This document shows, piece after piece, positions 17,588 to 55,251 of a stretch of 64,000 bases of DNA. Source of the DNA: a virus. Taxonomy: Duplodnaviria > Caudoviricetes. The stretch is from the IMG/VR virus record IMGVR_UViG_3300028888_000057; one strand, written 5' to 3'. Each line of letters begins with the position of its first letter. Positions within the stretch are counted from its first letter, which is position 1. Both the position numbers and the translations under genes were made by a program. The notes under the pieces were generated by a model, which saw only the letters and a program-made list of their open reading frames with translations, had not been told where the DNA came from and ran no database searches.

Positions 17588-20500
17588 TTAAAATGTATAA
17601 CTCGCAAGATTTAATCCTTCTTTACGAAGCTGTTTCGTAAACTCTTGACCAACTCTTCTTGCGACATCTTCGAAATCAGCATCATCCTTCATCTCTGCTC
17701 CGTTAATCGTAATGTTGATATCTCCGATGGTTTGATTGCTTGTGTTTATCTTATCAAGATTTGGAACTCTAAACGGTTCGATATTGACGTAGTTTAAAGC
17801 ATCAGTAAGAGCTTTAATGTTGGCGGTGTCATAAGCACTAAGGAATGCTTCGGGTTTGGACATGGATCCATCAACCCATGCAAGTCCTGTATAATCAACT
17901 AAGCCACCTTCTGCATTTGGGCCTGTAATATGTTTATTTGTTAGAAGCTTTTCTTGATTTTGTTTATTGGCTTCAGCTGCTTTTGCGCCGAGATCTGATA
18001 TGCCCTCAAAGAAGCTACCTAAAACATTTCCAACAGCATTGCTTAAATCATTAAAAGGTTTAGAAATATCGATATTTAAAGGCGGTACTCCAGTTGCAAC
18101 ATTTGATCCACCGACACCCGCAGATGTAGAAGTATGAGTTGTTGCGCTATATGATGATCCATACTCTTTTTCAACAATCTTTTGTGCTTCCGTTTTTGAC
18201 GACGCTTGAACGGAATAACTTGTCTTAAACCCGTTTTTATCATAAACATCATATGTAGATTTGCTAGCTTGTTGTTTCTGTTGCGTTCCCGTATTGGCAG
18301 ATGGAGCAGGTTGTTCAGGCGCTACTGGTCCTTCGCTCTTCGGAACAACGTCTCCGGTTCCGGCGTAATCGCTTGGATTTGTAGGAGCAGGAGTTGGTTC
18401 AGTTGTAGGTTGATCAGGCTGAGTATCGTCAGGTTTGGTATCCTCTTCTTCACCTTTTTCTTTGCCATCGTTTTTATGATCATCGAATGAAGTGAAGCTT
18501 GGATTGTAGCCGCTGCCGTTGTTGTACCAAGAAAAATCAGGATCCCAACCTAAAGCTTCAAGAATTGCTTCTTCTGAATTTTGAGGAGTAAAGTCTTCGT
18601 GAATATCTGGTGTATAATTAATTGCCTGAAGCGCAACACTAACAGCGCTGGCAGCATTAGTCCAGCCATCTTGCCATTGACTTGCCAGCTGAAGTTGTCC
18701 AGTAACACTGGCATTCGCATAATCCAAACTATTCTCATACATGAATTTCATAAAGCTGTCTTGACTTGAAAGTATCTCATTAATCTCATCCCAATAAGTC
18801 TCGACAATACCCTTCATTGCCATCCATGTTTCTTTCCAGCCTTCTTCAAGCTGTTTCTTTCTTTCATCAAGGCTGTTCTGATAATCAATATCATTCTGCT
18901 GCAACCATAAAACGATATCGGAATAACTTCTGCTTAATACTTCTTTGACTTCGGCTGCAAAATTGTTAGCATCAAGAAGCATTTCCTGCAGATTCTCTCC
19001 GTGAATCTGGACGTATTCGTTGATGGCATTAATTTCATCTTCGATACGTTCAGTTGCAGCTTCTGCTTGCTGGCTTGCTTCGTCCCATCTGATATCCTGC
19101 CTCAGTTCATCGATCTTACGGGTAAGCTCTTTAGATTCCTTGCTTCTTGTTGGATCAGCAGAAATAAGAGCTAATTGCCGCTGATAATCATTAAGCTCGC
19201 TGTATTTATTTTCCGCATTCATCATCTGCCTGCGGTAATTCAGCCGCTCATTAATCAGTTGCTTTTCTTTTTCAAGAGCGTCTTTCTTTCGATCAAGCGT
19301 TTCTTTTTCCAGATCCCATTCGTCTTGATATCTGCGTTTGATAACATTGAGGATAATATTCTGCATTTCGACTGTGTTATTTAACATGTCTCTTTGCTTT
19401 TTCTTATTATCTTCAATGACCTTTAAAACCATCTGTTCAAGTTCAAGACGAGTTTTACGAATTGCTTGCTCGTTCTGTCGCAGAAGCTTGTTATTCTTTT
19501 CAATCGCATTATTGTTCTGTAAAAGAGCTTCTTCCTTCTTCTTGATTGCATCTGATAATCTATAGTAATCTTTTTCACTCAGGTTGATGTTTTCAAGCTC
19601 TTCTCTCAAGAGAGTAAGCTCTTCTTCCATAGCTGTAGTATTCTCTTTGCGATAATCAATCTCTTTCTGCAGCATGATGCCATAGTTGGTAAGCTCGCCG
19701 TTAGTTTGATACCTAGTCTGCTCATACTGCATAAGCGTAATGTTATGAGTACGATTACCTTCGTGACGATTAATTTCGTCAAGCAATCTGTCAACTTTAA
19801 TTCCTTCGAGTTCTCTGTCGAAGTTTTCAAGCTCGACTCTCGCAGAAGAAATAGACTCTTCAAGAGACAATACTTTCTGACGCAGATTATCCCATGCGCC
19901 AGAGCCATAAGGCACTGATCCCATTTCAGCTTTCAGTTGTGCTGCTTGTGCCGTCATATCTGCAACAGAAGAAGTTAACTCTTCACGACGCTTTTCGGCC
20001 ATGACAAAGTATGCATCCCAGTTGCCTTGATTCTGATAAATCTGTCCTTGATCTTTAATCAGCTTTTGAATATGACTGCTTAAATCGTTAATTCTATCAA
20101 TGCCTTCAAGGATTTCATCAACGCGATCTTCCATGATATCCATTTCAGCATTGGCGATATTAGCTTCAAGCTCAGTAATCTTGCCTTCAATTTCTTGAAC
20201 CAACTGAAGTTGTTTATAATACTCTTCAGTTTCTTTTACCATAGCTTTAAGCTTTTGAACTTCGATCGCTAACAGGCTTTTCTGAACGGTAATCATTTTA
20301 CGCCAATTTGCGATCTGTCTTTGCATCATATCCCGATACGCACCGTGATTACCAGCCCGCTTATACGCGTTGGCCATAAGCGCGTAACCGTTGTTCTGAT
20401 GCTCCTCGGTCATCGTCTGACGCTGTAAGCTCTCTCTTGTATCATTCTGTTCTTTCTCAAGCTTATCTTTTCTGGCCTTATCTCTTTGAGTGAGCATGTT

Positions 20501-23500
20501 ATCGTTCTGTTCAAGAAGTGAGTTAATCTCTTGAGTAGTATTTAAAGCATTCTGAGTTTGACCTTTGGAATTATAATAATCTCTCAAAGACTCCAACTGA
20601 GTAACATGTTTATTGTTACGTTCTTCAATCTCTTTATAAATATTTTCCTGTTCTTCGAAGAGCTTATTATACGATTCGGTATCTTCATTAAGATCGGCTC
20701 TCTCCATTTGAGAACTGATCATGTTTAATCTGTGAGTATACGGAATCGCTTCATTCTGCTGATACTGTCTTTGAACGTCTAATCTTGTAGCATCTAGCGT
20801 TATTCTATCGTTGACACTCTTGGCAATCTTTTCTGTTAAACTATCTCTTTCTCCAACAAGATCTCTATATCTGTCCGATTCTCCGTTACGCAGATATTCA
20901 TCTTCCATAGCAGAGACGATTTCAGCCCTCCGTCTCCTGTCTTCGGATTCAATATCGTTTATGCCAGTAAGCTGCTTATCAATCTCACCCAGCGCAGCTT
21001 CTGGATCGTTCACATTCATATAGAACGTATAATCGATCTCAGACATAGTTTGCTTATGTTGCAACAGCGTAGAGTTGTACTCATACAGTTGTTTCTGTTG
21101 AGCATCCATCTTGGCATAGAGAGCATCTACGGCTTCAGCTACTCCAGCAAAAGCTTCCTGCGCAGCCCAAAGTGATTCTGTCAATTTGTTCCAGTCATCA
21201 GATCCTTCTTTGGTACTTCTGCGCATGTTCTCAATCTCTTGGATATTCTTTTGATACTGATCTGCTAATCTTTGTTGGACTTGAATTTGCTGATTGACAT
21301 TATCACGATACGCCGCATCATCATTATAACGATCATAATTCTTTTCTTGAATCTCAAGCATCTTTTGATCGTGTTGGATAGCAGATACATCGAACTTTTG
21401 TTTTTCAAGGAGTTTGTCAGCTGCGGACTTGCCGCCGCCGCCTCCACCACCGCCACGACCATGATACTTTCCGTTTGCATTTTTAGAGATTAATGCCTTT
21501 AAGTTGATCTTTTCTTTTCCTTCTTCTTGTACGAAAGTTAAAGAAGCAAGATCTCCAGCATATGCTTCCAGGCGTGCAATTGCTTCTTCAACAGCTGCAC
21601 GAGCAGTATCATCAAGCGCATCTAGATTCAACGTTCCGTCTGGATTAACAGTGATGTTGCTTAAGTCATAATTTAAAGATAAGTCGTCGACCATGCTGTC
21701 CCAGATTGCTTGGAAGTCATCTGTAGCAGCTTCGTTAACAGCGTCTTCAGCGCCATCTAACAACTCAGCCAGTCGATCCTTAGAAAGCTGTTTAATCTCA
21801 TCGGAACTTATTTCCGGGAACAGGCTATCGATAAACCCAAGTGTTTTAGTATCTAATTGTTTACCTGATTTGCCTTGAGCTTTGGATATTGCAGTCATTT
21901 GATCTTGGAAACCTTCAATGTTCTTACGAATCATTTCGGTTCCTTCAGATGCATCTTTGCCGCCCTTCTTTATTTTAGAAAGAGCCGACGCAAGATTTGC
22001 AGAACCTTTACTGAACTGCGTAACATCTTTCAGTTTATCTTCGTTGACCTGCTCGTTGTATTTTCTTAAAGCTTTCTCAGCTGTATTGGCAGAAACACCC
22101 TCAGATTTAAGAATGTTTGCGAGCTCATCAGAATGATCAAGTGAATTAAAAGCATTTATTTCAGCCGCGTACTGCTCTTGATTCTGCATCCAGTCACGAT
22201 AAGTATCAATCATATTCTGACCGGACATGTTACCGCCGAACAGACTGTTCATCGTGGCCCGTTGAGTTTCAGGTGATGCTTTTCTTCCATACAGAGCGTT
22301 ATAATATGCATCATTAATCATATCTTCTGTAATGGCAGAACCTTCTTGTCCGAAGGAGTTTACCATATACAGAAGACCGTTATCTATCGAACCCCAGTCG
22401 ACATTCTTGTTTTGCTGAAGCGCAGAAACACGTTCACTAAAGGACGCTTCTCCACCTTCACCCCACAGCGTATTGTAAACTTCTGACATTGCAGCGCCGC
22501 GTTTACGTGTAGACTCAAGCGAAGAACTCGCAATATCCGATAATGATTTATACGTATTGTCGCTATGAACACCATTTTTTGCTTCGTTGATCGCATTAAG
22601 GAACGGTTCAATAAGCTCACGTAAATCTTCAGGCACTTGATCTAAAGACGAAATGATATCGTCTAAAGACATAGTATCAAAATCAAGAGAAGTTAATAAC
22701 TCTTCAGGAAGAAGTTCGGTTGCAAGTTTCTGATAGAACTCTTTGACTTTATCGTTAATGGCAGTTTGCAGTTCGCCTTCCTGACCGTTCTGAAGCATTT
22801 CATCTACTTGTTCATCAGACAGTCCGAGAAGAGAAGAGATGTATCCACGGTTCTCAGCCGTGTTTCCTCCTTCTAATCCGTATTGTGCTTGTTGCAAAGC
22901 ACGCATCGTATCACTATAACCGCTAATTAAACCTAACTGTTCCGCAAAGGAACCGTTAGTGAAGATATCCCGAGCCGAGACAATCTGCTGGGCGTTTTCG
23001 CGAACATAACGAGATGCGCTCATGTTGAGCTGTTCGGTTAACTGTTGACGGTCAGCTTCACGTTCATTTTGTGAAGCTTCGAGATCGGCAAGTTCTTTCG
23101 CTCTTCGCATTTCAGCAGAACCGTATACGGCAGTTCCACCAGCAGATACAGCTTCTCTGTTTCGTTCAACCATCCGTCTGAATTCAGTACCGTAAGTACT
23201 CATTGACTGAGCGGCCGTATCATACAGGTTCTTATCTTCAAACTGATCTCTGCTAAAACCATTCAAGATTCTGCGTTGAGCTTGTGCTATATCAGTCTGT
23301 GAATAATGCTGTTGAGCATTTAAGAACGGATTTACCTGATCGATATTTGCACCTTTTCCGGTATACGTATATTTTCCTTGCGTCATATCCCAGAAAAGCT
23401 GCGTCATCTTATCGTTAATCTTTCCGCTGCTTTGACCGACAACATCACCGTTTGAGAGAACATTGAATCCATATCGATCCATGAACTTAACGGCGTCTTC

Positions 23501-26500
23501 GTAAGAATAAAGCGCATCGGTTATTTCGTATCCATTTTGCTTAGCCCAATCAGCAGCCAGTTCAACTTGTCCTAATCTTGCAAGTTCGTTTAACGTCCCA
23601 GCAAAAGCTTCTCTATCATTCTCAGCCATTAATTCCGCACGTCGTAATGATCCAGCTCTATCTTTTTGAATTTCGATATCGCTAATACCATATGCACGCA
23701 TAGCAGCATTTTGCTCTTCGTACGTTCCGTTTTCAAGCATGAGAGCCCGTTGCTGATTTTCGTGCATCTCAGATCCGAACTGTAGCTGAGTCTTGATACT
23801 TACATTTCCGTTTTTCTGTAAATCTTCAAGAAGTTGAGTAGTGCCTTGAACAACTTTTCCGGCTTCTTCAAGCTCTGAAATACCAGAAATATTAAGCTTA
23901 ATCTGAATATTGCGATCAAGATTTATACCTTCTTGTTCTTCGGCCCGTTGTTCAGGTTTCATTTGCAGAAGACTAATAATTTCTGGATATTTACTTTGAA
24001 TAGCTGACCATTCGTCAGTAGTCCAGCCTTCTTCGGTCATTACTGTTTGTGCTTCGGCCAAAGATTGGAAGTTTCTACCATAAAGATTACGAGCTAGATC
24101 GGTAGCTTCTTTATTTGTTATTGTACGGCCAGTGCCGACTTTAATTCCTTTTTCGGCTAATGTTCGTGCAACATAATCTTGCAAATCGGCATCTGTTGAA
24201 AGCGTTCTATTTCGTGCAGCTTCAACAATTCTTTGTGTTTCCTGTTCTCCGAAGAAATTTTGAAACACTTTAAAAAGCTCGGAATAGTTGCCGTTTTCTT
24301 TAGTAAAATCTTCAACAAAATTTGGATTGCCTTGAAGAGCATTAAACATCAACGAAGAGATTGCCTTAGAAGTGTCTTCTCCGTTTAACATTGCAGCTGC
24401 AATACTTTGATAATCGCTCCACCTCACACCACTACGAATCTGACGATGCGAAGCTTGCTCCAACTCGTACAATAAAGGATTGTCTCTCTGAACGTTGCTT
24501 AGTTCCGCGCCTTCAGCAAGAAGATCGTAAATATCGAATAAAGATTGCTCGGTATTTGCTTCTAATACTCTATTTAAATATCTGTTTCTAGCTTCTGTTT
24601 TGGCTAATGCTGGCTGCCGTTCTTGTGTTACAGTTTGAGTTGATTTCTGTGCTGTTGAAGGATAAACAGGAGTTCCATTATTTTTTATTTTCGTTAATGC
24701 AATATTATTATCTCTCGCATATTTTTCTGCGTCTTCTTGATTCCAGAATGTTTGATTGACTCCTTGTATTGTATAAGGAGCATCTGTCTCAGAATAAGAT
24801 TTAATTTCATTTGCTGCATTAGATAAATTATCGTAATCGAATGTTTGAGCAAACCAATTTGAAAGAGCGTATTCGTTAAATTCTCCTTCGTCATTAAGCC
24901 AACTGTAACTTTGACCATTTCTTGTGTATTCGCGTTTAAAGTTTCCATTTTCATCATAAAGTTGACTCGTCAGCAAGGTTCGAAGACCAGACTCAATAAC
25001 TTCAACGGAAGTGTTACCTAAAGAAGCAACCTGTTCTAATGTGCCACTTGTTTTATAACTGTTAATCGCATCATCAATAACTTGTTGGATATTCTGCTTC
25101 CTTTGCTCTTGATTTCTTGCTTCCGTAAAATTACCAGAGAAAAATTGATCCAGAACGTATTCATAAGCGTTCGATATTCTATCAAGTACACCTTCGTTTT
25201 CTAAATCCAACGACTGCGTTCCGTCGAGCCACTGCAATATATCTTCATATCTAGAATCGCTTAAGAATGTTTTTAAACTGTTGCGATATTTTCCTTGGTC
25301 ACTTGACCACAATCGTTTGAAAACATTGGCGCGTCTTTTTCGAGCAAGATTTTCATCCTCACCCTCTACTAATCCTAACCAGCCACCATCTCTAAAGTTT
25401 ATAGACATGGCCTGTTCTTTTGTCAGGTCATCACTAAAATTAACACCTTGCCCACGAATAAATTGTTCATTACTTAACGCGCGCTTAAGGCCGATTTCAA
25501 ATTCACTTGCTCGGCTTTCTGTAATATTTTCACCTTCGAGAGTTCTGTAATTCTCAGGAAGATAATCTCTTACATATTGATTTGCATTATCAACATTTTC
25601 TTTATCTGCATCTTTTTTAAACTTTTGAGCAGTATCTTCTGCTGATTTAACGGCTTCTTCCCAACCAGAAAGTTTTTCAATAGCACTCTGCACTGAATCA
25701 GAAACATTAGGAAATACTTTTGCCAAATCTAATAAAGCAGCCCGGAGATTATTTCCCGCCGTAGCTTTCGCAGCTGCATCAGTTTTTTCATTAAGCGAAT
25801 CGTATACTTTTCCTAATTTCTTAACTTCATCAATTGCATCCTGCTGGGTTTTTACATCGTTATCATTATAAGACTTTGTTGTCCCTAATGTTTCAAGAGC
25901 TTTCGCGTTCTTCTTTTCAAATTTTTCGCGTTCTGTTTCTGTTGATCCGAGTCCGGCAAGTAAATTTGTTCCGTATGAAGCAACCGCAAATCCACCAAGT
26001 GCGGCTAATATCGTAGCTATTCCAGCCAATGGTCCAAGTTTAACAGAGTTCAACGCAACTGCAATCGCTGCAATACCAGCTGCAATACCACCTAAGATAG
26101 GAGCAGCATTTGATCCATTTGCTATATTTTGCAAGAACCCTGACAACAAATCGAGAACATTTGTAATGTCTCCTCCGTTAACAAAGCTCTCTACGACAGC
26201 GTCCCAAGAACTTCTAACGGTATCCATCGATGCCGCAAGGCTCTGCATGGCAATCTCATACTTACTTTGAGTTACGCCTTCAGATCCTTCTGCCAGCCCC
26301 AAGTACTTCTCCAATGTAGCACCGTTATCTTCAGACATACCTTCCATCAATGTAGAGAAGATGTTTGTCTGACGAGTACCAGCCATTGCGTTGGTAACAA
26401 TGGACTTCTGAGCGTCGCTTAAGTTCTTCCAGACTTTGGACAAGTCTAACATTACATCGTAAGCAGATCTCATCTGTCCGACTGTTTTGTTATCCCAGAG

Positions 26501-29500
26501 ATCAACACCTACAGCAGCAAGTGCAGCTTCAGCGTCGGAAGCAGTCGTCTTCTCACCGTTTTGATCGGCTGTGTAGCCTGTAAGGCTCAGCCTTCTCATG
26601 CGGGAGAACACTGTCTGTAAGGCTGTACCGACCTGGGTACCGCTTAACTGTGTATCGGAAGTACCGATAGTAAGTAAGGCTGTTAACTCTTCGTAGGATA
26701 CGCCTGCAACTTTGGCAGAAGCAGCAGCTTTCTGCATACCTTTACCAATCTCAGCCGCAGTTGTAGCAGCAGAGTCACCTAACGCTACCAGCGCGTCCAT
26801 CGCTGCTTCGGCAGAAGGAACTAAGTCATTCTGTAATGCAGTAGTGATAATCTTGGTAGCTTCAGCAACATTAAGCTTAGTGACGGTAGCAAACTTGATA
26901 ATAGATTCTGTACGGTCAGCTACTTCTGTGTCGGATAAGCCTTGACGATAAAGTGCAGCTTCGGTAGTAGCTACGTTAGAAACAGAGGTTCTGAGACCAA
27001 TAGCACGATTAATCGTTCCGGTACGCACGTCACGCATTTCGCCGTTGGACTTCATGGTGATGGCTTGGATCTCGTTCATGGAAGCGTCAAATTCTTTTAC
27101 AAAGCGCTTTGTTTCTTGAAGAGCTTTTTGGAAGAGTTGACGACCAAGACGTTGGGCAACCATACCGATTGCTTGACCTAATTCTCCGAACACAGCCTGA
27201 GCTGTTTGTCCGCCGCTGGTCAGTTGATCAAGTTGACTCTTTGCTTCTTGAGAAGCTTTATCTAAGTTCTTTAGCTGTTGAGTGGCTTGATCATATCCAA
27301 ACTGCGCAGCATTAATCTTTTCCTGATCTCCAGATTTTTTTGCAATCTCCAGTTGTTTAGTGTAGTAATCCTGATTACGCTGAGCATCTTCTTTTTGACG
27401 ATCGATAGAGTAGACTTGCTCTCTTGCATTCTCTCTGCGTTGTTCAACTCCGTAAAGAGCTTGAGCAATACGGGAGCGGCTGTAACGCATTTGTTGTTGC
27501 CGATTCGCTTGACTGAAAGCACGTTGCATATTATGAACGCGAATATCGCCTTGCATTGCAGAAGACGTCAAAGCATTATCTCTTTGTAGTTGACGTAAAA
27601 TTTGATTATTATCATATTGCTCTGTAATGCGCTGCTCTAAGATTGGATCAGTATTAGCAAGTAATAATGCTTCTTGTTCAGAATACCGTTTCGCTCTACG
27701 AAGCTTTTCTGCTCTAGCGTTTCTTGAAGCTTTAGCTTGAGCCAAACGATATTGTATTTCTTCGTCTCTCGTCATCGAGCGACCTTGCAATTGAGCATCA
27801 AGCTGATATCCTTCTGCGTCAAGTTGAAGATTCCGTTGCTCTCTATTAAAACTTACTTGTTCTCTTGCTCGAGCTTTTATTCGTCTATTGGAATATTCTT
27901 GTTCGAAAGCATTTCGATCAAAATCAGGGTCATTTATGTGTTCTGCTTTATAACGATCTCTCTGTAATTTCATTTGATCATACATTTGATCAAATTCTTC
28001 TTTTGCCGAAAAATCCTCACCACTAAATAATGTATCTAGATTGCGCTTAGAAACACGTGTTTGAGCATTTTTCATCACTTCTCTGAAATATTCATCTTCT
28101 CTATTTCGCTTTGAATATTGATCCCATAAATCCTTATTATCAAGTATTTTATCATATTCGTTCCGAAGAGGATCGTCCAGTCCCAAAACGTCTCTTTGAG
28201 CAGTAATCTGATCTTTTAATTGTTGGACTTTTATATCAGCTCTATCAGTCGAAGATAAGTTGCCGTTTGTTAGTTCCCGTTGATATTTGGCTAACTGATC
28301 AAAACGTTGACGGTTCAATCTTGCTAGCATATCATCAGCTTGAGAATTAATTTTATCAACTTTAGTTTCTTCTTCTTTTGACATAATCGAAGAAGCGTCT
28401 CTTGTATAATCAGGCATTAATCCAGTACGCTGAAATTCTTCATATAAAATCGCGTCTGATTCTTCTTGTGTTAACTTATTTCCAGCTACAGCAACTCTTC
28501 TTTGTTTTCTCCAATTTTCTACAATCTCTTCTGGCGTTTGAGTTATTAATCCTAAGCGTTGTTGAAGATCGCGCTGAACAATTGCTTCTGGCTTATCACT
28601 TTCGAGGAATGAATCAGCTTGCTGTATTCTGTCTTGTCTATCTTTGATTATTTTTGCATAAGCTTCAGCTTCATCTTCTGTAATGTCCGGATTTACTATT
28701 TTTTCACTTGCTTCCTTAATTTCATTTGACCAGTTATCTATCTTTTGCTGAATTTGCTTTCTTTTATCGGCAAATGCCGCTTCAATCATTTCCGCCGGAT
28801 CTTGTATTTCACCGATGAGACTTGACCAGTCTGCATCTTGAGCTTCTTTGTCAGATTTTAAATAACGGTCAAGTGCCGGTTTTATCTCTTCCATTGCCAC
28901 TTCTTCAGCGTCAATCGAATCTAAAAATCTCTTTTTTTGTTCTCTTGCGACTTCAGCAAGTTTAGTATTATCTGAATCAACATTGAATAACTCAGCTTGT
29001 TCTTCAGGCGATAAATATGCATCTGCAAGTTCTTTGTATTCACCAGTTGGACCCATTTTTGTAATATAGCCACGGTAAATACTTTCTCCGCCAACTTCCA
29101 TCTTTTTAATGAAGTCTCGACTGCTTTTAGCAGCCAACAATCTACTAGTAACACCAGACAGTGTTTTCATAGTGTTCGATCTTTGGACTCCATTTAGACT
29201 ATTTGTGATATCTTCTCCCGCTTTATCCCAGTCTGTCACAGCGGCTTCAGAACCCAATTTATCAATTTGAGAAAGCAATCTTAACTTTTGTCTTATATCG
29301 TCTGTTAATTTTTCTCTTACTGGAGAATCAGAATCGTATCCATAAGCAACAGCATTGACTACTTCTTCTGGAAGAACTTCCATAAGTTTATTTCGGTAAT
29401 TTTCGAATCGATTAAACTTTCTTTCCGGTAGATCCATTTCACGGAAAATGCTGCTTCGAATCTGATTCATAGTTTCAAGATCGCTTGGATATCTAGACAA

Positions 29501-32500
29501 GAAAAACTCTCTGTCTTTTTGAGACATATCTCTATGATTTTCCTGAGCTCTAGACGTATATTCTTCGGCTTGACGCTTTTCTCTAGACTCTCTAGCTATC
29601 GCAGCTGCATAAGCGCGGCCTTCGTCATCTAATGTTTTTGCGTCAATCATTTTATGCTCCATTGCATATTGAACATCTTTTTCGACTTCTGCAAAAACGG
29701 ACTCATTATCCGCTCTTCTAGCTAAGATATGCGCGTCTTCTCGAGGATTATATCCAATTACACCACCAAGATCAGATACATATTTTTTAGCTACATCGTC
29801 CCAGTGCCCAACTCCAGCAAATGCCTTATATGAAGTTGCATTTGTTTCAGGATTCGGAGAATGCAAATTTTCATAATATTCCTGAGCATATTTGTCCATG
29901 ATGGAATTGTAGAAAATAGACTGAATAAGAGATTCAGCTGCTCCTTCTGCGCTAGACTTATAGTCTATTGTATATAGCAATCCATCATTTTTATTTCGAA
30001 GCATTAAGTCCGGTTTCGCGTGTGTCCGTTTTGAAGTGTCATATCCGACAATCTGGCCGTCTTTATCTCTTATTGGTATTTGAATGTTGAAATCTTTTTG
30101 CATCGGGATTGCGCCGAGGCTTTCTCCGTTTGGTCCATAACTATAAAAATCTCCTTCAACATTCACAGGACGTTCAGTGTCGAAGCCAAGATTATTTAAA
30201 GACTTAATAAACTTAGCTGATGATGAAACTGGATTATTTTTAGTCGGAAGTATTTTATTTAATTTTTGAACAGCTGTGTTACTTCTATCGCCTTTTACTT
30301 CAAATAAAGGCTTTTCACCGTCTTTGCTGATTCTCGATATGTTTATCCCGTATTGGTTTAATTTATCATTATATCCGCCAATATAAGCATCAGTATAAAA
30401 ATCATCTATAGATCTTCCATTTAAAGTTCCATCGGCCGCTGCTTTAAAATATTGCTCGAACGCCCCATGCATCAATAAACCTTGAAGGGTATGCTCGTTT
30501 TCAAACGGTTGATTTCGTAGTTCTGCTTGAGCCTGTAAGATTTGATCAGCAAGATTATTAAAGCTTTTTATTGTCGTTTCGGTGTTTCTTGCACCAGATG
30601 GAGTAAACTCAGTTGTATTTAGTCTATATTCTTTATCTGGCATCCAGTGCTTAAATGATGTCCAATTCATTTGAATATGATCATCATCCCAAACGCCGTT
30701 TTTTAATCTCTCTTCCTCTGCTGCTTTCTGAGCTTCTTCTTCTGCTTTCGCGTCATATGAAGTAATCTTCGCTTGTTCTTTTATTGCATCTCGGACCGCT
30801 GAATCAACAGCTTTGTCACTCTGCCTTTTGCTTTGATGCTTCACAAGACGATCAATTAAACCAAACCTGTCTCTATTTTCTTCAACGTTGTTTCCATTCG
30901 CTATTTCTGTTAAAATACGATCTCTTTCAGTTTGAAGGTTTTTAACAGTAAATCCTTCTCCGCTTTCAAGTTCGTGAATGCGACGAACAAATCTATTGTA
31001 TTTTTTATACTCTTCTTCGTCTGTTGAAACATTTCGACCGCTTAAACTGGCCTCCCAACGTTGTGCAATATCGTAACCATTTACGATATCTTCATCTGTC
31101 ATAGCTCGACCAGTCATCATTTCAGAGAACTTTTTAGCGTACCATCTTGTGGCTTGAGCTTCAGATGACGCGGATTTTCCGTATTTGCGTTCAATTAAAC
31201 GGTTTACATTATTGTTAAAATCGGAGAAATCTGTTGAACCGTTTTCATAATCTATTGCTCGCAAAGCAACAGCAAGTGCTCCTTGAGGGCCTGAAATAGT
31301 CGCGAACTTAACTTTAAAAAGTTGATCAAGAGCTTCTTCTTCTTTTTCGAGATATGGATCTCGACCATCTTCTTCTGCTAACTCATTAAGTTTTGTCACA
31401 AAACGAAGATAGCTTCCGCCATTACTAAGAAAAGATTCAGTATCTTTATCGAGTTTGAGTTCTTGACCTTTCGTTCTCATATCGGAAGAAGCAAAATCAT
31501 AAGCTTTCATTCCTTTATAAGCAAGCTTCCACTTTTGAGGATCTGAGTCGGGAAGATCCATGGCGTCTCGAATTATTTTCGAAGCAGCGCCCATTGCTCT
31601 CGTTGATTTCTGATAATTCTCAAGAGCTTTAATCCTACTTTCAAGCACATCTCCAGTTTTTGCTTTTGGTTCTTCTATATTACCTTTATAGCTTTCTTCT
31701 TTTTCTATTTCTGCTTGAGCTTCTTGTATTTTTTTGCTTATATAATCCATATGTGCATACGAGGCATCTTCAAGTCCGGCATACATACGGATTGTATCTC
31801 CATCGAAGTCTCCAGTGTTCATTTGATATGCTTGTTGAGTAGTTAAATATATTGCATTATCAAGCTGCTCTTGTGTAATCCCGAATTTTCCTAAAGCTTT
31901 AGAAGCCATGTTGTAAGCAACAATGCGCTGATCTGGCGCATCCGGATTTCTATTAAAAGCAGCACGTTTATTAAATGAAAGATTTTTGCCGCCTGTAGCA
32001 ATTCGACCTGTATTGTTTAATTCAGCCGTTGCTATATTTTGTAATTCTTTAGGTAAATCATCTACTGTTTTTCCGGCGGCTTCTAGTAATGGCTCTAACC
32101 ATGCCATAGGAGTAACAGCTGCTACAAGATCTTTCGCTTTGACTTCGTCCGGAAGAGCTATATAACCAGATCGTTCTTTTTCTTTAAGGCCTCTAATTTG
32201 ACTTTGAATATACGATTCAGCTTCTTTTGAGTAAGCGAAATTAGCATCTTCGTCTAAAAGTCTAGAGTAATACGGGCTTCTTCTTAACGCTTCAATTCTT
32301 CCTTCTGCGCTTTGAAGATGGAAACGTCTTCTCGCAAATTCTTCTTTTGACTTTGCTTGTGTTTTAGCGTCAATCCCTATTGCCGCAGCAGTCTGCTGAG
32401 ACATAATCGTCGGATCCGAAGACAAATCGTATGCTGTTCGCATAACCATCCAATGCGGAGTAGCACGATCATGAAATGCACCTTGTTCCTCAGGAAGCAA

Positions 32501-34936
32501 CGTAACAATCCCGCTTGATGAATTCACACGACCTTCTTTTCGCGCTTGTTCATATCCGGCTTCACCATATTCTCCAACGTATGATTTTTTATCTAAAAAT
32601 TTAAACCCTTCAAATTGCTTCACGGATGAATCTGTAAGAATTGCTCCGATGTCGTCCGCATTAGCTTTAAAGAATTTTTGACGTCTTAACTCGCGTTTCT
32701 GATCGTCTGTCAAACTACGTCCTTTGCCCATAAGATCAAGAACATCTTGTTTGTCCGCAGTTGCACTTGGAGCCCAATACATTAATTTGCCATTTTCGTT
32801 TGAAACCATCCAATTGCCATTCGCAGATTCTCCAACTTCATCTGGATTAAATGTTCCCATAATAGATCCAAACATATAATCAAGATCAACAGGATTCATC
32901 ACGTATTTAGCAAAGCCCATCGCTGACCGCATTTGCACTGGACCATTTTTAAATAATTTGTTACTTCCTAACGCAGCTCCGTCTATGCGGTTCGGTTTAC
33001 CTTCATATTTTTTTCCTAAAGCATCATACAATGCTTCCATGTTCATAATACGAGTCTGGAAAGGTTTTTCAAATTCACCAAAAACCTCTTCGTAAGGCAT
33101 AGAAGATGACGCAGATTTAGAAAAGTTATTTATTTGTTTTATAAGTTTATCTTCTGGTATATCTCTCAAACCATTAGCATTTAGACCGCCAAAAAAAGAT
33201 GGGATATGACGTTCTTCAGCCCATGTGTTAATTTGTTTTTTAAGATCATTTTCAATCAGCGAAATCGAATCTTCATTTTGCATTAAATATGAATATTTTC
33301 TTCCGCCATATTCATAATCTTTACTTACAAGATTTTTTAATTCTGGGAGTCGACTTTCATTGATTGTTCCATCTTTTAAAAAATATGGCTTTGTTGATAA
33401 CGTCAAGATTGGCGGCGTTTTATAGATCGGCTTACCTGTACTCTCATCGCGACCAAATCCGAACGTGCCATTACCAACTCCGAAGCTCATATTGTTTCCG
33501 TTGGAATCTTTCCAGATGTCGGAAATAAGTTTCATTATTGGACTGTTAGTTCTTACAATAAATTGATCGTCTTCTGACTGATCAAATAAACCTGTTTTCT
33601 TTTTCCAGTTTGGATCACTTTCAACAAGACGACCCGTAGAAGAATCAACCCTTGTACGAGGAATAATAAATTGAGTCGGCGTACCAACAGTTTTTATTTT
33701 CGAACCTGAACTTCTATATTCAATTGGAGATCTTAAATAATCATTTACATTAACATTAGAATCGGCAACGATAGAACCGTCTCGCGAAAGAAGATCTAAT
33801 ACACCAATAGCAGACCTAACGCGTCCGCTCATGCGTCGATCTTGACGAGTATTTTCGCTGAAATCACGAATGTCTGAATCGTAAAAAGCATATCCTCTTC
33901 TTGAATCAGCGATTTGCCTAAGCGACAATCCTGCAAGTTTTCCAGCTTGAGCTCTAGTCAAACTTTTAGCCCAACGAAGCTCACCGCCTTCTCGTCTTGC
34001 AACGCCAGCCGCCTCTAAAATATCATAAACGTCAGAAGCATCGTCACTGTGTTCGATATAATCTTGAAGTTCTTTATATAATCCGGTTTTAACATTTATT
34101 CTTTGCTTTGGACTTTTTAAAGACTGTCTCCAGTTTTGAATATCTTGTTCTTCTGCTGACCCATTATTATAGTAAGCTCTTCTGAATTGTTCTGGGATAA
34201 TATCATGTGCATAAGTATGCCGTCTACCTGCTTTAAAAGGCGCTTCTGCGAGAAGAGATTGTCCAATTGATCGAGAGGCAGATGTATTATTTGACAGCAA
34301 CATTAATCGTAAATTGTTTTTTATTTGCTGATCCGTAAATTCTTGTCCGTTTCCTGCTGCTTTAAAACTATTTTTTATCGCGTTGTCGTTTGCTAAAACA
34401 GAAACATACCGATCTAAAGTAGGAGTTTGACCTTTGAATTGCTTCGCATTTAACTCAGCAATCCTGTTATTAACAGCGCGATTCATGATCGTAGGCGCGT
34501 TTTGTTTGAATGCGTGTTTACTCCATCCTAAATCCTGATCGTATGCTTCGTTGATCGCATTGATTCTTGCCGCAAATTCACGCAATCCAAGACTTTTAGT
34601 TATTAACGATGTTTCATCTAAACCTTTTCCGTAGTCCCTTTTCATTTGATTAATTAATCCAGAAACAGTTCTGGTGACATCCATAAATGGAGCAACCAAG
34701 GACTGAGAAAAGTTCTTGCCAAATTTAGTAATTTGCGATTGAAGCGTTGTTAATCCGTTTGAATACAAATTTAAGCTTTCTAAAAAATATTGAACAGACT
34801 CATTTTGGGGATCGTTAAATAGATCGATGGGGCTGCTCTTAACATTATTTCTTAATTCTTCTACTGCCTGACTGGCATCGTCAATCCCTTGTTTATTTAA
34901 TGTTGTTAATATCTCAACTGAAACAGTATTTGACAT
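17588..34936 (-). CDS. Giant tape-measure protein fused to N-terminal RNA polymerase and PD-(D/E)XK nuclease domains
   Basis: 5782 aa, RBS AAGGAGG, between tail chaperones and Dit. Tape core at ~aa 2610-2910 (FDASMNEIQ…ATTAAEIGKGM…GTALQTVFSRM…AGTRQTN); C-terminal GGLVDYTGLAWVDGS.SKPEAFL; NTGDFDGD (D1043); PDL…IDYK at aa ~1642-1660. Confidence 0.9.
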   Translation of the reverse strand: MSNTVSVEILTTLNKQGIDDASQAVEELRNNVKSSPIDLFNDPQNESVQYFLESLNLYSNGLTTLQSQITKFGKNFSQSLVAPFMDVTRTVSGLINQMKRDYGKGLDETSLITKSLGLREFAARINAINEAYDQDLGWSKHAFKQNAPTIMNRAVNNRIAELNAKQFKGQTPTLDRYVSVLANDNAIKNSFKAAGNGQEFTDQQIKNNLRLMLLSNNTSASRSIGQSLLAEAPFKAGRRHTYAHDIIPEQFRRAYYNNGSAEEQDIQNWRQSLKSPKQRINVKTGLYKELQDYIEHSDDASDVYDILEAAGVARREGGELRWAKSLTRAQAGKLAGLSLRQIADSRRGYAFYDSDIRDFSENTRQDRRMSGRVRSAIGVLDLLSRDGSIVADSNVNVNDYLRSPIEYRSSGSKIKTVGTPTQFIIPRTRVDSSTGRLVESDPNWKKKTGLFDQSEDDQFIVRTNSPIMKLISDIWKDSNGNNMSFGVGNGTFGFGRDESTGKPIYKTPPILTLSTKPYFLKDGTINESRLPELKNLVSKDYEYGGRKYSYLMQNEDSISLIENDLKKQINTWAEERHIPSFFGGLNANGLRDIPEDKLIKQINNFSKSASSSMPYEEVFGEFEKPFQTRIMNMEALYDALGKKYEGKPNRIDGAALGSNKLFKNGPVQMRSAMGFAKYVMNPVDLDYMFGSIMGTFNPDEVGESANGNWMVSNENGKLMYWAPSATADKQDVLDLMGKGRSLTDDQKRELRRQKFFKANADDIGAILTDSSVKQFEGFKFLDKKSYVGEYGEAGYEQARKEGRVNSSSGIVTLLPEEQGAFHDRATPHWMVMRTAYDLSSDPTIMSQQTAAAIGIDAKTQAKSKEEFARRRFHLQSAEGRIEALRRSPYYSRLLDEDANFAYSKEAESYIQSQIRGLKEKERSGYIALPDEVKAKDLVAAVTPMAWLEPLLEAAGKTVDDLPKELQNIATAELNNTGRIATGGKNLSFNKRAAFNRNPDAPDQRIVAYNMASKALGKFGITQEQLDNAIYLTTQQAYQMNTGDFDGDTIRMYAGLEDASYAHMDYISKKIQEAQAEIEKEESYKGNIEEPKAKTGDVLESRIKALENYQKSTRAMGAASKIIRDAMDLPDSDPQKWKLAYKGMKAYDFASSDMRTKGQELKLDKDTESFLSNGGSYLRFVTKLNELAEEDGRDPYLEKEEEALDQLFKVKFATISGPQGALAVALRAIDYENGSTDFSDFNNNVNRLIERKYGKSASSEAQATRWYAKKFSEMMTGRAMTDEDIVNGYDIAQRWEASLSGRNVSTDEEEYKKYNRFVRRIHELESGEGFTVKNLQTERDRILTEIANGNNVEENRDRFGLIDRLVKHQSKRQSDKAVDSAVRDAIKEQAKITSYDAKAEEEAQKAAEEERLKNGVWDDDHIQMNWTSFKHWMPDKEYRLNTTEFTPSGARNTETTIKSFNNLADQILQAQAELRNQPFENEHTLQGLLMHGAFEQYFKAAADGTLNGRSIDDFYTDAYIGGYNDKLNQYGINISRISKDGEKPLFEVKGDRSNTAVQKLNKILPTKNNPVSSSAKFIKSLNNLGFDTERPVNVEGDFYSYGPNGESLGAIPMQKDFNIQIPIRDKDGQIVGYDTSKRTHAKPDLMLRNKNDGLLYTIDYKSSAEGAAESLIQSIFYNSIMDKYAQEYYENLHSPNPETNATSYKAFAGVGHWDDVAKKYVSDLGGVIGYNPREDAHILARRADNESVFAEVEKDVQYAMEHKMIDAKTLDDEGRAYAAAIARESREKRQAEEYTSRAQENHRDMSQKDREFFLSRYPSDLETMNQIRSSIFREMDLPERKFNRFENYRNKLMEVLPEEVVNAVAYGYDSDSPVREKLTDDIRQKLRLLSQIDKLGSEAAVTDWDKAGEDITNSLNGVQRSNTMKTLSGVTSRLLAAKSSRDFIKKMEVGGESIYRGYITKMGPTGEYKELADAYLSPEEQAELFNVDSDNTKLAEVAREQKKRFLDSIDAEEVAMEEIKPALDRYLKSDKEAQDADWSSLIGEIQDPAEMIEAAFADKRKQIQQKIDNWSNEIKEASEKIVNPDITEDEAEAYAKIIKDRQDRIQQADSFLESDKPEAIVQRDLQQRLGLITQTPEEIVENWRKQRRVAVAGNKLTQEESDAILYEEFQRTGLMPDYTRDASSIMSKEEETKVDKINSQADDMLARLNRQRFDQLAKYQRELTNGNLSSTDRADIKVQQLKDQITAQRDVLGLDDPLRNEYDKILDNKDLWDQYSKRNREDEYFREVMKNAQTRVSKRNLDTLFSGEDFSAKEEFDQMYDQMKLQRDRYKAEHINDPDFDRNAFEQEYSNRRIKARAREQVSFNREQRNLQLDAEGYQLDAQLQGRSMTRDEEIQYRLAQAKASRNARAEKLRRAKRYSEQEALLLANTDPILEQRITEQYDNNQILRQLQRDNALTSSAMQGDIRVHNMQRAFSQANRQQQMRYSRSRIAQALYGVEQRRENAREQVYSIDRQKEDAQRNQDYYTKQLEIAKKSGDQEKINAAQFGYDQATQQLKNLDKASQEAKSQLDQLTSGGQTAQAVFGELGQAIGMVAQRLGRQLFQKALQETKRFVKEFDASMNEIQAITMKSNGEMRDVRTGTINRAIGLRTSVSNVATTEAALYRQGLSDTEVADRTESIIKFATVTKLNVAEATKIITTALQNDLVPSAEAAMDALVALGDSAATTAAEIGKGMQKAAASAKVAGVSYEELTALLTIGTSDTQLSGTQVGTALQTVFSRMRRLSLTGYTADQNGEKTTASDAEAALAAVGVDLWDNKTVGQMRSAYDVMLDLSKVWKNLSDAQKSIVTNAMAGTRQTNIFSTLMEGMSEDNGATLEKYLGLAEGSEGVTQSKYEIAMQSLAASMDTVRSSWDAVVESFVNGGDITNVLDLLSGFLQNIANGSNAAPILGGIAAGIAAIAVALNSVKLGPLAGIATILAALGGFAVASYGTNLLAGLGSTETEREKFEKKNAKALETLGTTKSYNDNDVKTQQDAIDEVKKLGKVYDSLNEKTDAAAKATAGNNLRAALLDLAKVFPNVSDSVQSAIEKLSGWEEAVKSAEDTAQKFKKDADKENVDNANQYVRDYLPENYRTLEGENITESRASEFEIGLKRALSNEQFIRGQGVNFSDDLTKEQAMSINFRDGGWLGLVEGEDENLARKRRANVFKRLWSSDQGKYRNSLKTFLSDSRYEDILQWLDGTQSLDLENEGVLDRISNAYEYVLDQFFSGNFTEARNQEQRKQNIQQVIDDAINSYKTSGTLEQVASLGNTSVEVIESGLRTLLTSQLYDENGNFKREYTRNGQSYSWLNDEGEFNEYALSNWFAQTFDYDNLSNAANEIKSYSETDAPYTIQGVNQTFWNQEDAEKYARDNNIALTKIKNNGTPVYPSTAQKSTQTVTQERQPALAKTEARNRYLNRVLEANTEQSLFDIYDLLAEGAELSNVQRDNPLLYELEQASHRQIRSGVRWSDYQSIAAAMLNGEDTSKAISSLMFNALQGNPNFVEDFTKENGNYSELFKVFQNFFGEQETQRIVEAARNRTLSTDADLQDYVARTLAEKGIKVGTGRTITNKEATDLARNLYGRNFQSLAEAQTVMTEEGWTTDEWSAIQSKYPEIISLLQMKPEQRAEEQEGINLDRNIQIKLNISGISELEEAGKVVQGTTQLLEDLQKNGNVSIKTQLQFGSEMHENQQRALMLENGTYEEQNAAMRAYGISDIEIQKDRAGSLRRAELMAENDREAFAGTLNELARLGQVELAADWAKQNGYEITDALYSYEDAVKFMDRYGFNVLSNGDVVGQSSGKINDKMTQLFWDMTQGKYTYTGKGANIDQVNPFLNAQQHYSQTDIAQAQRRILNGFSRDQFEDKNLYDTAAQSMSTYGTEFRRMVERNREAVSAGGTAVYGSAEMRRAKELADLEASQNEREADRQQLTEQLNMSASRYVRENAQQIVSARDIFTNGSFAEQLGLISGYSDTMRALQQAQYGLEGGNTAENRGYISSLLGLSDEQVDEMLQNGQEGELQTAINDKVKEFYQKLATELLPEELLTSLDFDTMSLDDIISSLDQVPEDLRELIEPFLNAINEAKNGVHSDNTYKSLSDIASSSLESTRKRGAAMSEVYNTLWGEGGEASFSERVSALQQNKNVDWGSIDNGLLYMVNSFGQEGSAITEDMINDAYYNALYGRKASPETQRATMNSLFGGNMSGQNMIDTYRDWMQNQEQYAAEINAFNSLDHSDELANILKSEGVSANTAEKALRKYNEQVNEDKLKDVTQFSKGSANLASALSKIKKGGKDASEGTEMIRKNIEGFQDQMTAISKAQGKSGKQLDTKTLGFIDSLFPEISSDEIKQLSKDRLAELLDGAEDAVNEAATDDFQAIWDSMVDDLSLNYDLSNITVNPDGTLNLDALDDTARAAVEEAIARLEAYAGDLASLTFVQEEGKEKINLKALISKNANGKYHGRGGGGGGGGKSAADKLLEKQKFDVSAIQHDQKMLEIQEKNYDRYNDDAAYRDNVNQQIQVQQRLADQYQKNIQEIENMRRSTKEGSDDWNKLTESLWAAQEAFAGVAEAVDALYAKMDAQQKQLYEYNSTLLQHKQTMSEIDYTFYMNVNDPEAALGEIDKQLTGINDIESEDRRRRAEIVSAMEDEYLRNGESDRYRDLVGERDSLTEKIAKSVNDRITLDATRLDVQRQYQQNEAIPYTHRLNMISSQMERADLNEDTESYNKLFEEQENIYKEIEERNNKHVTQLESLRDYYNSKGQTQNALNTTQEINSLLEQNDNMLTQRDKARKDKLEKEQNDTRESLQRQTMTEEHQNNGYALMANAYKRAGNHGAYRDMMQRQIANWRKMITVQKSLLAIEVQKLKAMVKETEEYYKQLQLVQEIEGKITELEANIANAEMDIMEDRVDEILEGIDRINDLSSHIQKLIKDQGQIYQNQGNWDAYFVMAEKRREELTSSVADMTAQAAQLKAEMGSVPYGSGAWDNLRQKVLSLEESISSARVELENFDRELEGIKVDRLLDEINRHEGNRTHNITLMQYEQTRYQTNGELTNYGIMLQKEIDYRKENTTAMEEELTLLREELENINLSEKDYYRLSDAIKKKEEALLQNNNAIEKNNKLLRQNEQAIRKTRLELEQMVLKVIEDNKKKQRDMLNNTVEMQNIILNVIKRRYQDEWDLEKETLDRKKDALEKEKQLINERLNYRRQMMNAENKYSELNDYQRQLALISADPTRSKESKELTRKIDELRQDIRWDEASQQAEAATERIEDEINAINEYVQIHGENLQEMLLDANNFAAEVKEVLSRSYSDIVLWLQQNDIDYQNSLDERKKQLEEGWKETWMAMKGIVETYWDEINEILSSQDSFMKFMYENSLDYANASVTGQLQLASQWQDGWTNAASAVSVALQAINYTPDIHEDFTPQNSEEAILEALGWDPDFSWYNNGSGYNPSFTSFDDHKNDGKEKGEEEDTKPDDTQPDQPTTEPTPAPTNPSDYAGTGDVVPKSEGPVAPEQPAPSANTGTQQKQQASKSTYDVYDKNGFKTSYSVQASSKTEAQKIVEKEYGSSYSATTHTSTSAGVGGSNVATGVPPLNIDISKPFNDLSNAVGNVLGSFFEGISDLGAKAAEANKQNQEKLLTNKHITGPNAEGGLVDYTGLAWVDGSMSKPEAFLSAYDTANIKALTDALNYVNIEPFRVPNLDKINTSNQTIGDINITINGAEMKDDADFEDVARRVGQEFTKQLRKEGLNLASYTF

Positions 34937-34956
34937 ACCTACTTAACCTCCTTTTA

Positions 34957-34985
34957 TTGACAAATTAAGTATTTCATGTTATAAA
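34957..34985 (+). promoter_or_regulatory. Sigma-A-type promoter
   Basis: TTGACA (34957-62), 17-nt spacer, TATAAA (34980-85) with extended TG; ~40 nt upstream of the ATG at 35027. Confidence 0.7.
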
Positions 34986-35026
34986 AAACGAGCAAACCCC
35001 TGCAATTGAAAAGGAGGAAGACTCGC

Positions 35027-35371
35027 ATGGAAACAATATTAATCAATGAAGTTACTTGTCCTGCCTGCGGAGGGCATTTGTTTGACAAAGAATATATTGA
35101 AAAAAAGTTGTATATATGCAGGCAATCTGTTGATATGTACTTTAGATGTAATCACATACTTGCTTTCTGTAAACAATGCAACAAACTTCAAGACGAAAAA
35201 GAATTCGGAAAGCATGGCGATGTCTGGGAATGCAAAGAATGTGGCGCAATTTGTTGGCCATTAACTGACGAAAAAAGAAGAAGAGAAGAAATTCTTTCTA
35301 AATATGAATCTCGGTCTAAAAAGTTCAACAGCGTTGCCAACGAAATAGAATCTTTACTAAAAAATGAATAA
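35027..35371 (+). CDS. Small multi-CxxC zinc-finger protein
   Basis: RBS AAGGAGG, ATG 35027; CPAC, CKQC, CKEC pairs. Confidence 0.75.
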   Translation: METILINEVTCPACGGHLFDKEYIEKKLYICRQSVDMYFRCNHILAFCKQCNKLQDEKEFGKHGDVWECKECGAICWPLTDEKRRREEILSKYESRSKKFNSVANEIESLLKNE

Positions 35372-35457
35372 TGACATTGTAAAACATCAGAGATTTCACG
35401 ATTTAATTTTCCGTTAATTCAACTTCAATTAATGATTCAAATAAGGAGTGATTAAGA

Positions 35458-35697
35458 ATGGAGCGCATAAGTAACTCGGTGCCCTGCCGCAAATGCGGAG
35501 CCAACGAACATATTCCAAGATATGCACAAAGAGATTTCTTTATATGTAAGAAATGTTCCCAGCCGATCGGTTACAGATGCTCCGGATGTGAAGAGTTTTT
35601 TGAGAATGCCGACAACCTATATTATGACGGCAGTATATACAGATGTAAAATATGTAACACTATACAGTGGGGTTATTCTGATTGGAAGCTACAATAA
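35458..35697 (+). CDS. Small zinc-ribbon protein (4 CxxC)
   Basis: RBS AAGGAG; CRKC, CKKC, CSGC, CKIC. Confidence 0.75.
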   Translation: MERISNSVPCRKCGANEHIPRYAQRDFFICKKCSQPIGYRCSGCEEFFENADNLYYDGSIYRCKICNTIQWGYSDWKLQ

Positions 35698-35740
35698 AAA
35701 AATAGGGGAGAGACAGTTAAATCTCTCCCCTTTTATTATT
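35696..35740. terminator. Bidirectional intrinsic terminator
   Basis: A-tract, GGGGAGAGA-8nt-TCTCTCCCC, T-tract; lies between convergent stops at 35697 and 35736. Confidence 0.75.
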
Positions 35741-54976: not shown

Positions 54977-55251
54977 AGACAAAAGGTAGGTATAAAAGCC
55001 TGCTTTTTTATTTCAACATACGTGAACAGAAGAGCTCTGAGTAATCAGAGTTCTTTTTTATATATCAACATGCATGAAGTACTCGCTCATGCATTACAAC
55101 CGCAAAATCCCAGCGGTATGAGTGTGGCAATTGGGTGCCGTGCTATACGAAACATAGCTCAAGGCCGAGCAGGCGCATCTTAGCTCAAAGATGCAAATGT
55201 TTATCAATTCTATTTTGTTGTCTCTTAAGTGAGACAGAAAGGAAGGAAACC

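Follow-up and report, generated by a model that had tools for sequence, protein, structure and literature searches.

A probable RecB-type nuclease domain between a polymerase-like module and the tape core of a giant phage tape measure protein

Can a phage tail tape measure protein (TMP) bring a nuclease into the cell along with the genome and, if so, on which nucleic acid would that nuclease act? The question is raised by a 64,000-nucleotide (nt) stretch of DNA from a virus of the Caudoviricetes (IMG/VR record IMGVR_UViG_3300028888_000057; the whole stretch is called the window here), in which a single uninterrupted open reading frame (ORF) on the minus strand (17588-34936), set in a siphovirus structural module, encodes a giant protein of 5,782 amino acids (aa). 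A first-pass annotation, made from the sequence alone, had placed a RecB/Cas4-type PD-(D/E)XK nuclease between an RNA polymerase (RNAP) domain and the tape core of this protein. Judging from its motifs and their conservation, a family match in a homologue, and a structural model, the segment in question, which lies between a region carrying the motif DFDGD (aa 1043-1047) and the PhageMin_Tail core of one polypeptide, is very likely a true domain of the RecB type whose active site is intact. Below, we set out the evidence for the domain, then the proteins and genomes in which it occurs, and finally the roles that it might play at infection. In the numbering used throughout, residue i begins at nt 34936-3(i-1) on the minus strand.

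Motifs, fold, and family of the nuclease domain

The six motifs that the annotation had listed in order across aa ~1415-1680 all stand at the residues it gave, within one open frame. Specifically, these are WTSFKHW (aa 1425-1431), motif I QGLLMHGAFEQYF (G-x3-H-x3-E; aa 1485-1497, nt 30446-30484), NVEG (aa 1592-1595), AKPDLML (aa 1640-1646, with D1643), TIDYKSS (aa 1656-1662, with D1658 and K1660), and LIQSIFY (aa 1670-1676, with Q1672 and Y1676). When the protein was shuffled 2,000 times, a strict ordered pattern of these motifs never occurred and a relaxed one occurred in 6 shuffles, both patterns having been drawn up after the sequence was seen. The nuclease core, which we delimit at ~aa 1479-1720 (29777-30502, minus strand) from conservation, a Pfam match in a homologue, a structural model, structure matches, and hhalign, comprises a helix bearing G-x3-H1490-x3-E1494, a strand bearing E1594-G, the elements P-D1643-LML and I-D1658-Y-K1660-SS, and a helix bearing Q1672-x3-Y1676. 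The position first proposed, 29900-30690, holds approximately, with the modeled fold reaching slightly wider. N-terminal to the core lies the W-TSF-KHW motif (30644-30664, minus strand), in which W1425, K1429, H1430, and W1431 are invariant; the nuclease domain of E. coli RecB begins similarly, with W..TSYS. This motif falls in a stretch that was modeled at low confidence.

Homologues of this segment are few, and they retain its catalytic residues. A complete HMMER search through 1.84 billion representative proteins returned only seven matches, the window's own protein included, of which four are other giants (P0002, 6,256 aa; P0003, 5,646 aa; P0006, 4,352 aa; and P0007, 4,565 aa) and the rest two fragments; a word-indexed search added a 94%-identical relative (P0008). 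The match between the window segment and P0006 had an E value of 1e-5 in this 1.84-billion-protein library and the two segments occupy equivalent places in proteins that are collinear. Across five aligned giants sharing 24-50% identity, the residues H1490, E1494, E1594, D1643, D1658, K1660, Q1672, and Y1676 are all invariant, as is G1486. When P0008 (94% identical) and the two fragments were aligned together with these five, the invariant columns of the eight sequences were D1643, D1658, K1660, Q1672, and Y1676, together with T1638, G1652, Y1659, S1661, and A1666, which are largely catalytic positions. The D/D/K set that the annotation had taken as catalytic (D1643, D1658, and K1660) is, therefore, conserved throughout.

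Family assignment comes through a homologue. The check that the annotation had suggested, a search of profiles such as PDDEXK_1 and Cas4 with the segment from the window itself, found no match, with nothing at E <= 10 for PDDEXK_1, while the orthologous segment of P0006 matches PDDEXK_1 (PF12705) with 24.8 bits and an E value of 2.4e-5 over the D...DxK...QxxxY core, and thereby passes the curated Pfam cut-off of 22 bits. The orthologous segment of P0007 scored 17.6 bits, below the cut-off, and gave a weak match to Cas_Cas4 (E 0.24); as a calibration, E. coli RecB itself scores 29.6 bits on PDDEXK_1. Further, hhalign of the family profile against E. coli RecB placed D1643, D1658, and K1660 on D1067, D1080, and K1082, respectively, with an E value of 0.0028 for this single comparison. 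By eye, the GTFLHSLFE, acidic strand, QYQLY, and W..TSYS start of RecB match the remaining motifs in the same order. The language-model neighbors of the nuclease segment include DUF2800 and PDDEXK_1 clusters.

The structural model points to the same family. An AlphaFold2 (AF2) model built from the eight sequences reached a predicted local distance difference test (pLDDT) score of ~80-90 in the core, whereas a single-sequence AF2 model (pLDDT 42.6) was too poor for use. The modeled order of elements, namely helix (H, E), strand (E), strand (D), strand (DxK), and helix (QxxxY), fits the alpha-beta-beta-beta-alpha-beta fold, with D1643, D1658, and K1660 on or directly beside adjacent modeled strands and Q1672 and Y1676 in the modeled helix 266-292. 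Among 48,161 PDB representatives compared using VIA-align, the top match was the Dna2 nuclease domain (Z 6.4, 143 residues aligned), and all other matches with more than 125 aligned residues were likewise RecB-family nucleases, namely AdnA (Z 5.1 and 4.9), AddA (5.0), MGME1 (4.3 and 4.1), and the Cas4-like ACE1 (4.2). A second look with VIA-align aligned RecB residues 913-1137 over 152 residues (Z 3.5) and otherwise gave mostly generic helical matches to an insertion in the domain (model residues 79-186). Foldseek against the viral model library BFVD returned phage PD-(D/E)XK and RecB-like exonucleases as its highest-probability rows. In an atlas fold search, all template modeling (TM) scores were below 0.35.

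Neither the nuclease domain, nor any of the seven homologous segments, nor the whole 5,782-aa protein contains a cysteine. The Fe-S cluster of Cas4, AddB, and Dna2 is thus impossible here, and the domain is RecB/AddA-like, not Cas4-type. Hence, while the RecB-family PD-(D/E)XK assignment of the annotation is borne out by the intact and conserved catalytic set, the PDDEXK_1 match of a homologue, and the fold resemblance, its Cas4-type label has to be dropped. The giants carry 0-1 cysteines in 4,352-6,256 aa, with counts of 0, 0, 0, 1, 1, and 0, and gp96 of the Thermus phage P23-45 carries none in 5,002 aa; elsewhere in the window, proteins show normal numbers of cysteines (1-20). This avoidance may reflect unfolded passage through the tail and envelope, which, if so, would explain why the nuclease is of an Fe-S-free type.

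We infer that the segment probably works as a Mg2+-dependent, cysteine-free PD-(D/E)XK nuclease resembling those of RecB and AddA. An analogy with RecB H956, D1067, D1080, and K1082 suggests that H1490, D1643, and D1658 bind the metal and K1660 activates water, that E1594 and E1494 support the site, and that Q1672 and Y1676 grip the DNA backbone. Immediately downstream lies another conserved block, at aa ~1800-1950 (29087-29539, minus strand), whose pairwise identity (~0.3-0.4) equals that of the nuclease; it has no Pfam or PHROG match and might act as a module partnering the nuclease.

Distribution, companion module, and genomic setting

Within a small clade of giant TMPs, we regard the nuclease as a constant component; these TMPs belong to large phages that are related to SPbeta and Clostridium phage c-st and that probably infect Firmicutes. 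It co-occurs with DFDGD in all six full-length homologues, in which DFDGD lies at aa 1043-1104, the nuclease motifs follow ~400-600 residues further on, and PhageMin_Tail is present. The order proposed in the annotation, with the nuclease between an RNAP-like (DFDGD) region and the tape core of one polypeptide, is thereby confirmed beyond the window (6/6), as is the co-occurrence with the RNAP-like region that it had put forward for checking. The contexts of P0006 and P0007 contain the families YonB, YomU_Tube, and YOMG_N, which are SPbeta-type structural genes. Similarly, the structural genes of the window resemble those of SPbeta, c-st, and large Bacillus siphoviruses, its terminase being nearest to those of c-st (30% identity) and of large Bacillus siphoviruses.

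Outside this clade, a tblastn search of 50,697 GenBank phages found no similar segment, the species genomes scanned held no prophage copy, and a profile search of a 5.8-billion-protein set yielded 8,000 candidates, none of them significant; IMG/VR contained one locus (L003:13288-28296), identical to P0007. Two apparent stand-alone nucleases, P0004 (402 aa) and P0005 (91 aa), were rejected as fragments. P0004 sits on a 1.8-kb contig (L006:1-1800) between two other same-strand ORFs, and its tail continues into sequence matching the giants downstream of the domain. It resembles a giant gene that has been fragmented or frameshifted, not a free-standing nuclease. An intein or homing endonuclease insertion was also considered and rejected, given that the segment occupies the same place in all six giants, at an identity like that of its flanks, in a protein without cysteine.

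The partner of the nuclease in this clade is the N-terminal module at ~aa 300-1250 (31187-34039, minus strand), which carries an NTGDFDGDT metal-binding loop and which, judging from its sequence, is probably a two-barrel RNA polymerase. The DFDGD of this loop (aa 1043-1047, nt 31796-31810) is invariant in the six giants. In hhalign and HMMER comparisons, only the NTGDFDGDT loop aligned to the catalytic loop of P23-45 gp96, and the polymerase region had no sequence match in Pfam or the PDB. An atlas search with aa 300-1250 placed 28 of 30 language-model neighbors in PF05183 clusters of two-barrel polymerases of the RNA-dependent RNA polymerase (RdRP) type (score 0.90).

A separate 1,121-aa ORF on the opposite arm (55135-58500, plus strand) has a helix-hairpin-helix (RuvA-like) N-terminal region and a GDVDGD motif. 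No family match was found that backs a polymerase identity for this ORF, and a BLASTP comparison of the polymerase region with it was uninformative. If it is a candidate stand-alone polymerase, it would, by analogy, parallel the pair of virion and non-virion polymerases of P23-45.

The 5,782-aa protein that carries these modules is a phage tail tape measure protein, as its core, its gene position, and its post-core hydrophobic segment all indicate. The core (PhageMin_Tail, PF10145; ~aa 2649-2853; 26378-26992, minus strand) scored 102 bits with an E value of 5e-29 in the Pfam search and is the best-conserved part of the protein (pairwise identity 0.6-0.7), and twelve TMP PHROGs hit that region as well. 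Upstream of the gene are those for terminase, portal, and capsid, and directly downstream are a Dit homologue and the gene for a 2,009-aa Tal-like minor tail protein. After the core comes a hydrophobic hairpin (aa 2942-2989; 25970-26113, minus strand), the sole transmembrane-like stretch in a Kyte-Doolittle scan, which is likely the membrane anchor of the ejected protein. On the other side of the core, aa ~2000-2600 form a highly charged and poorly conserved stretch.

Several further features of the gene and its surroundings were observed. The ~800 bases just upstream of its start (34937-35735) are without a minus-strand ORF of at least 100 aa, and related loci have several small genes (76-167 aa) in the corresponding region. 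Within the C-terminal third of all six giants, there is a glycine run of 6-11 residues (in the window, aa 4495-4502; 21431-21454, minus strand), after which K-S comes next both in the protein of the window and in the consensus of the alignment. The run could serve as a hinge or mark a site of processing. A second conserved region near the C-terminus (aa ~5051-5266 and up to ~5400; 19137-19786, minus strand; identity 0.25-0.43) is without a family match, and conservation is very poor in the stretch before it (aa 4550-5050).

Possible roles at genome entry

What might a nuclease do in such a protein? We consider it likely that it is ejected with the TMP and is active in the cell. At infection, the TMP would be ejected and its hairpin (aa 2942-2989) would insert in the membrane. 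Because this sole hydrophobic hairpin comes after the tape core, the N-terminal 2,600 residues, with polymerase and nuclease, would reach the cytoplasm and remain tethered beside the genome-entry pore, the charged stretch at aa ~2000-2600 tying the polymerase/nuclease part to the membrane. There, the nuclease would act on DNA ends at the pore. The role that we prefer, if tentatively, is to resect, to a limited extent, the leading end of the phage genome itself as it enters. Such resection would expose single-stranded DNA (ssDNA), so that the fused polymerase could start without a promoter-melting factor or the terminal repeats could anneal, and it would fit the strict pairing of nuclease and polymerase in the clade. 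A more specific and rather speculative version, doubtful as a whole, is an "entry machine" in which one strand is resected and the resulting 3' single-stranded tail lets the factor-less RdRP-like polymerase start pre-early transcription, perhaps also contributing to pulling in the genome.

An intact and conserved catalytic set would also suit a nuclease injected against foreign DNA, be it the host chromosome, plasmids, prophages, or co-infecting phages, for purposes of host shut-off, nucleotide scavenging, or competition, and the annotation had itself raised an early attack on host DNA; DNase domains do occur in virion-delivered multidomain proteins, for which host-DNA degradation or attack on rivals has been proposed (PMC5512222). 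We nevertheless hold such a role to be unlikely here, on grounds that are not decisive: a membrane anchor probably tethers the domain, helicase-less RecB-type domains act mainly on DNA ends, of which an intact chromosome has none, and the strict polymerase pairing (6/6) suggests that the two modules have linked functions on the DNA of the phage itself. A siphovirus virion, moreover, contains only a few copies of its TMP. In such small number and tethered, an end-acting nuclease would be poorly placed against the chromosome and ideally placed against a DNA end passing the pore. Alternatively, the RecB fold may be kept mainly as a DNA-end clamp or as a structural or assembly module, for example, one holding the leading end in the tail or shielding it there from host AddAB/RecBCD: the N-terminus of a siphovirus TMP faces the head-proximal tail end, near the DNA end, and in RecB-family domains single-stranded ends are bound inside a channel. 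However, the invariance of all metal-binding and catalytic residues at 24-50% identity is the usual sign of selection for catalysis, and we take a mainly non-cutting role to be quite improbable. Action on RNA, whether trimming or releasing transcripts together with the fused polymerase or cutting host RNA, has parallels in influenza PA and bunyavirus L, where a PD-(D/E)XK endonuclease and a polymerase are combined in a virion-borne protein, and one of the weak BFVD rows, at rank 17, is an influenza-like PA. Yet the motif set and every domain-spanning match are those of DNA-end enzymes (RecB, AddA, AdnA, Dna2, and MGME1), and bacteria offer no cap to snatch, so an RNA substrate seems extremely improbable.

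More fundamentally, the motifs could be a chance resemblance in a conserved linker, with no nuclease at all, as might be argued from the lack of a direct family or PDB sequence match for the window segment, the negative Foldseek search of the PDB, and the middling Z scores. We judge this very improbable in view of the strict pattern (0/2,000 shuffles), the invariant catalytic residues, the homologue that exceeds the PDDEXK_1 cut-off, and the convergence of five separate approaches (homologue Pfam match, VIA-align, BFVD Foldseek, hhalign, and language model) on one family. Still, the case for a nuclease rests on several independent and individually modest lines, because direct searches with the window segment failed, and a number of observations weigh against the reading that we favor. 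The window's own segment has no match in Pfam, PHROGs, NCBIfam, or PADLOC, and it matches no PDB sequence either alone (phmmer) or as a five-sequence profile; the sole PDB-sequence match, a designed protein at E 0.04, was taken as spurious. The mean pLDDT of the model is a middling 67.5, on only eight sequences, the VIA-align Z scores of 3.5-6.4 are all below 8 and below that tool's level for a match standing alone, and Foldseek against the PDB gave no row at E <= 0.001. Direct similarity to RecB covers only ~26 residues, as global hhalign to RecB failed and the local core alone aligned. The polymerase identity rests on one motif and a language-model lead, and in P23-45 a polymerase fused to the tape, gp96, functions with no such nuclease, which means that a nuclease is not generally needed for that strategy. 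Finally, we infer catalysis, delivery, topology, and substrate alike for this phage.

A conserved and apparently active nuclease in a TMP would bear on how these proteins are understood. TMPs were long viewed as passive rulers, until P23-45 showed one carrying a polymerase into the cell. If true, the nuclease would be a second injected enzyme, working at a time when the phage has one naked copy of its genome and no new proteins. It would also offer a testable answer to the question of how minimal virion polymerases that prefer ssDNA start on a freshly injected double-stranded DNA genome, and, in the case of an "entry machine", template preparation and transcription would be coupled in a single polypeptide. 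Further, it would widen the list of proteins that host defenses at the entry site might meet.

Relation to known systems

The closest known parallel is gp96 of Thermus phage P23-45, in which the N-terminal part of a 5,002-aa TMP is a virion RNA polymerase that transcribes the pre-early genes and is proposed to work at the pore that the TMP creates (PMC10770324, Chaban et al. 2024). A location at the genome entry site has also been reported for the lambda TMP (bioRxiv 10.1101/2025.11.03.685801). Like the 5,782-aa protein of the window, gp96 (of P23-45, and also of P74-26, G20c, and TSP4) is a giant TMP with an N-terminal DFDGD module before the tape core and no cysteine, and both the P23-45 genome and the window genome have a second candidate stand-alone polymerase gene. 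The two differ in that the similarity between gp96 and the window's polymerase region is confined to the catalytic loop, the host lineages are not the same, and gp96 has no counterpart of the nuclease, showing neither a hidden Markov model match to the nuclease family nor an hDYK[ST] motif. A nuclease is likewise not mentioned by Chaban et al. 2024 (PMC10770324), and our literature search found no paper on a nuclease built into a TMP.

The nuclease domains of RecB, AddA, and AdnA share with that of the window the TS[FY], the G-x3-H-x3-E, the acidic first strand, the D, the D-Y-K-[ST], and the Q-x3-Y, all in the same order; they, too, are without an Fe-S cluster, and they are among its best domain-spanning structural matches. 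However, those domains are fused to superfamily 1 (SF1) helicase motors, whereas that of the window is fused to a polymerase-like module and a tail ruler, and, unlike them, it has an insertion of ~100 mostly helical residues between motif I and the first catalytic strand. With Cas4, AddB, and Dna2, the window domain has the catalytic core in common but not the four-cysteine Fe-S cluster.

Two further groups of virion proteins resemble the protein in its overall design. Polyvalent proteins are likewise large, multidomain, carried in the virion, and brought in along with the DNA, and combine a polymerase with other early-acting enzymes, although TMPs are not mentioned in the paper describing them (Iyer et al. 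2017, PMC5512222), and in the window a TMP carries a DNase of the RecB type. The crAss-like phage phi14:2 delivers gp66, a single-chain, RdRP-like, two-barrel virion polymerase that transcribes single-stranded or denatured DNA efficiently and duplex DNA hardly at all (bioRxiv 10.1101/2020.03.07.982082). This template preference serves as a lead, no more, to what the nuclease might do, as resection of the entering end would supply a template of that kind. In the atlas search, the window's polymerase region resembles the same RdRP-like group; gp66 itself is not part of a TMP. We know of no nuclease module in gp66. The annotation had taken an architecture joining RNAP, nuclease, and tape to be apparently undescribed, and this stands for part of it: the fusion of RNAP and tape is already published, with experimental proof for P23-45 (PMC10770324), and it is the nuclease module alone that is new.

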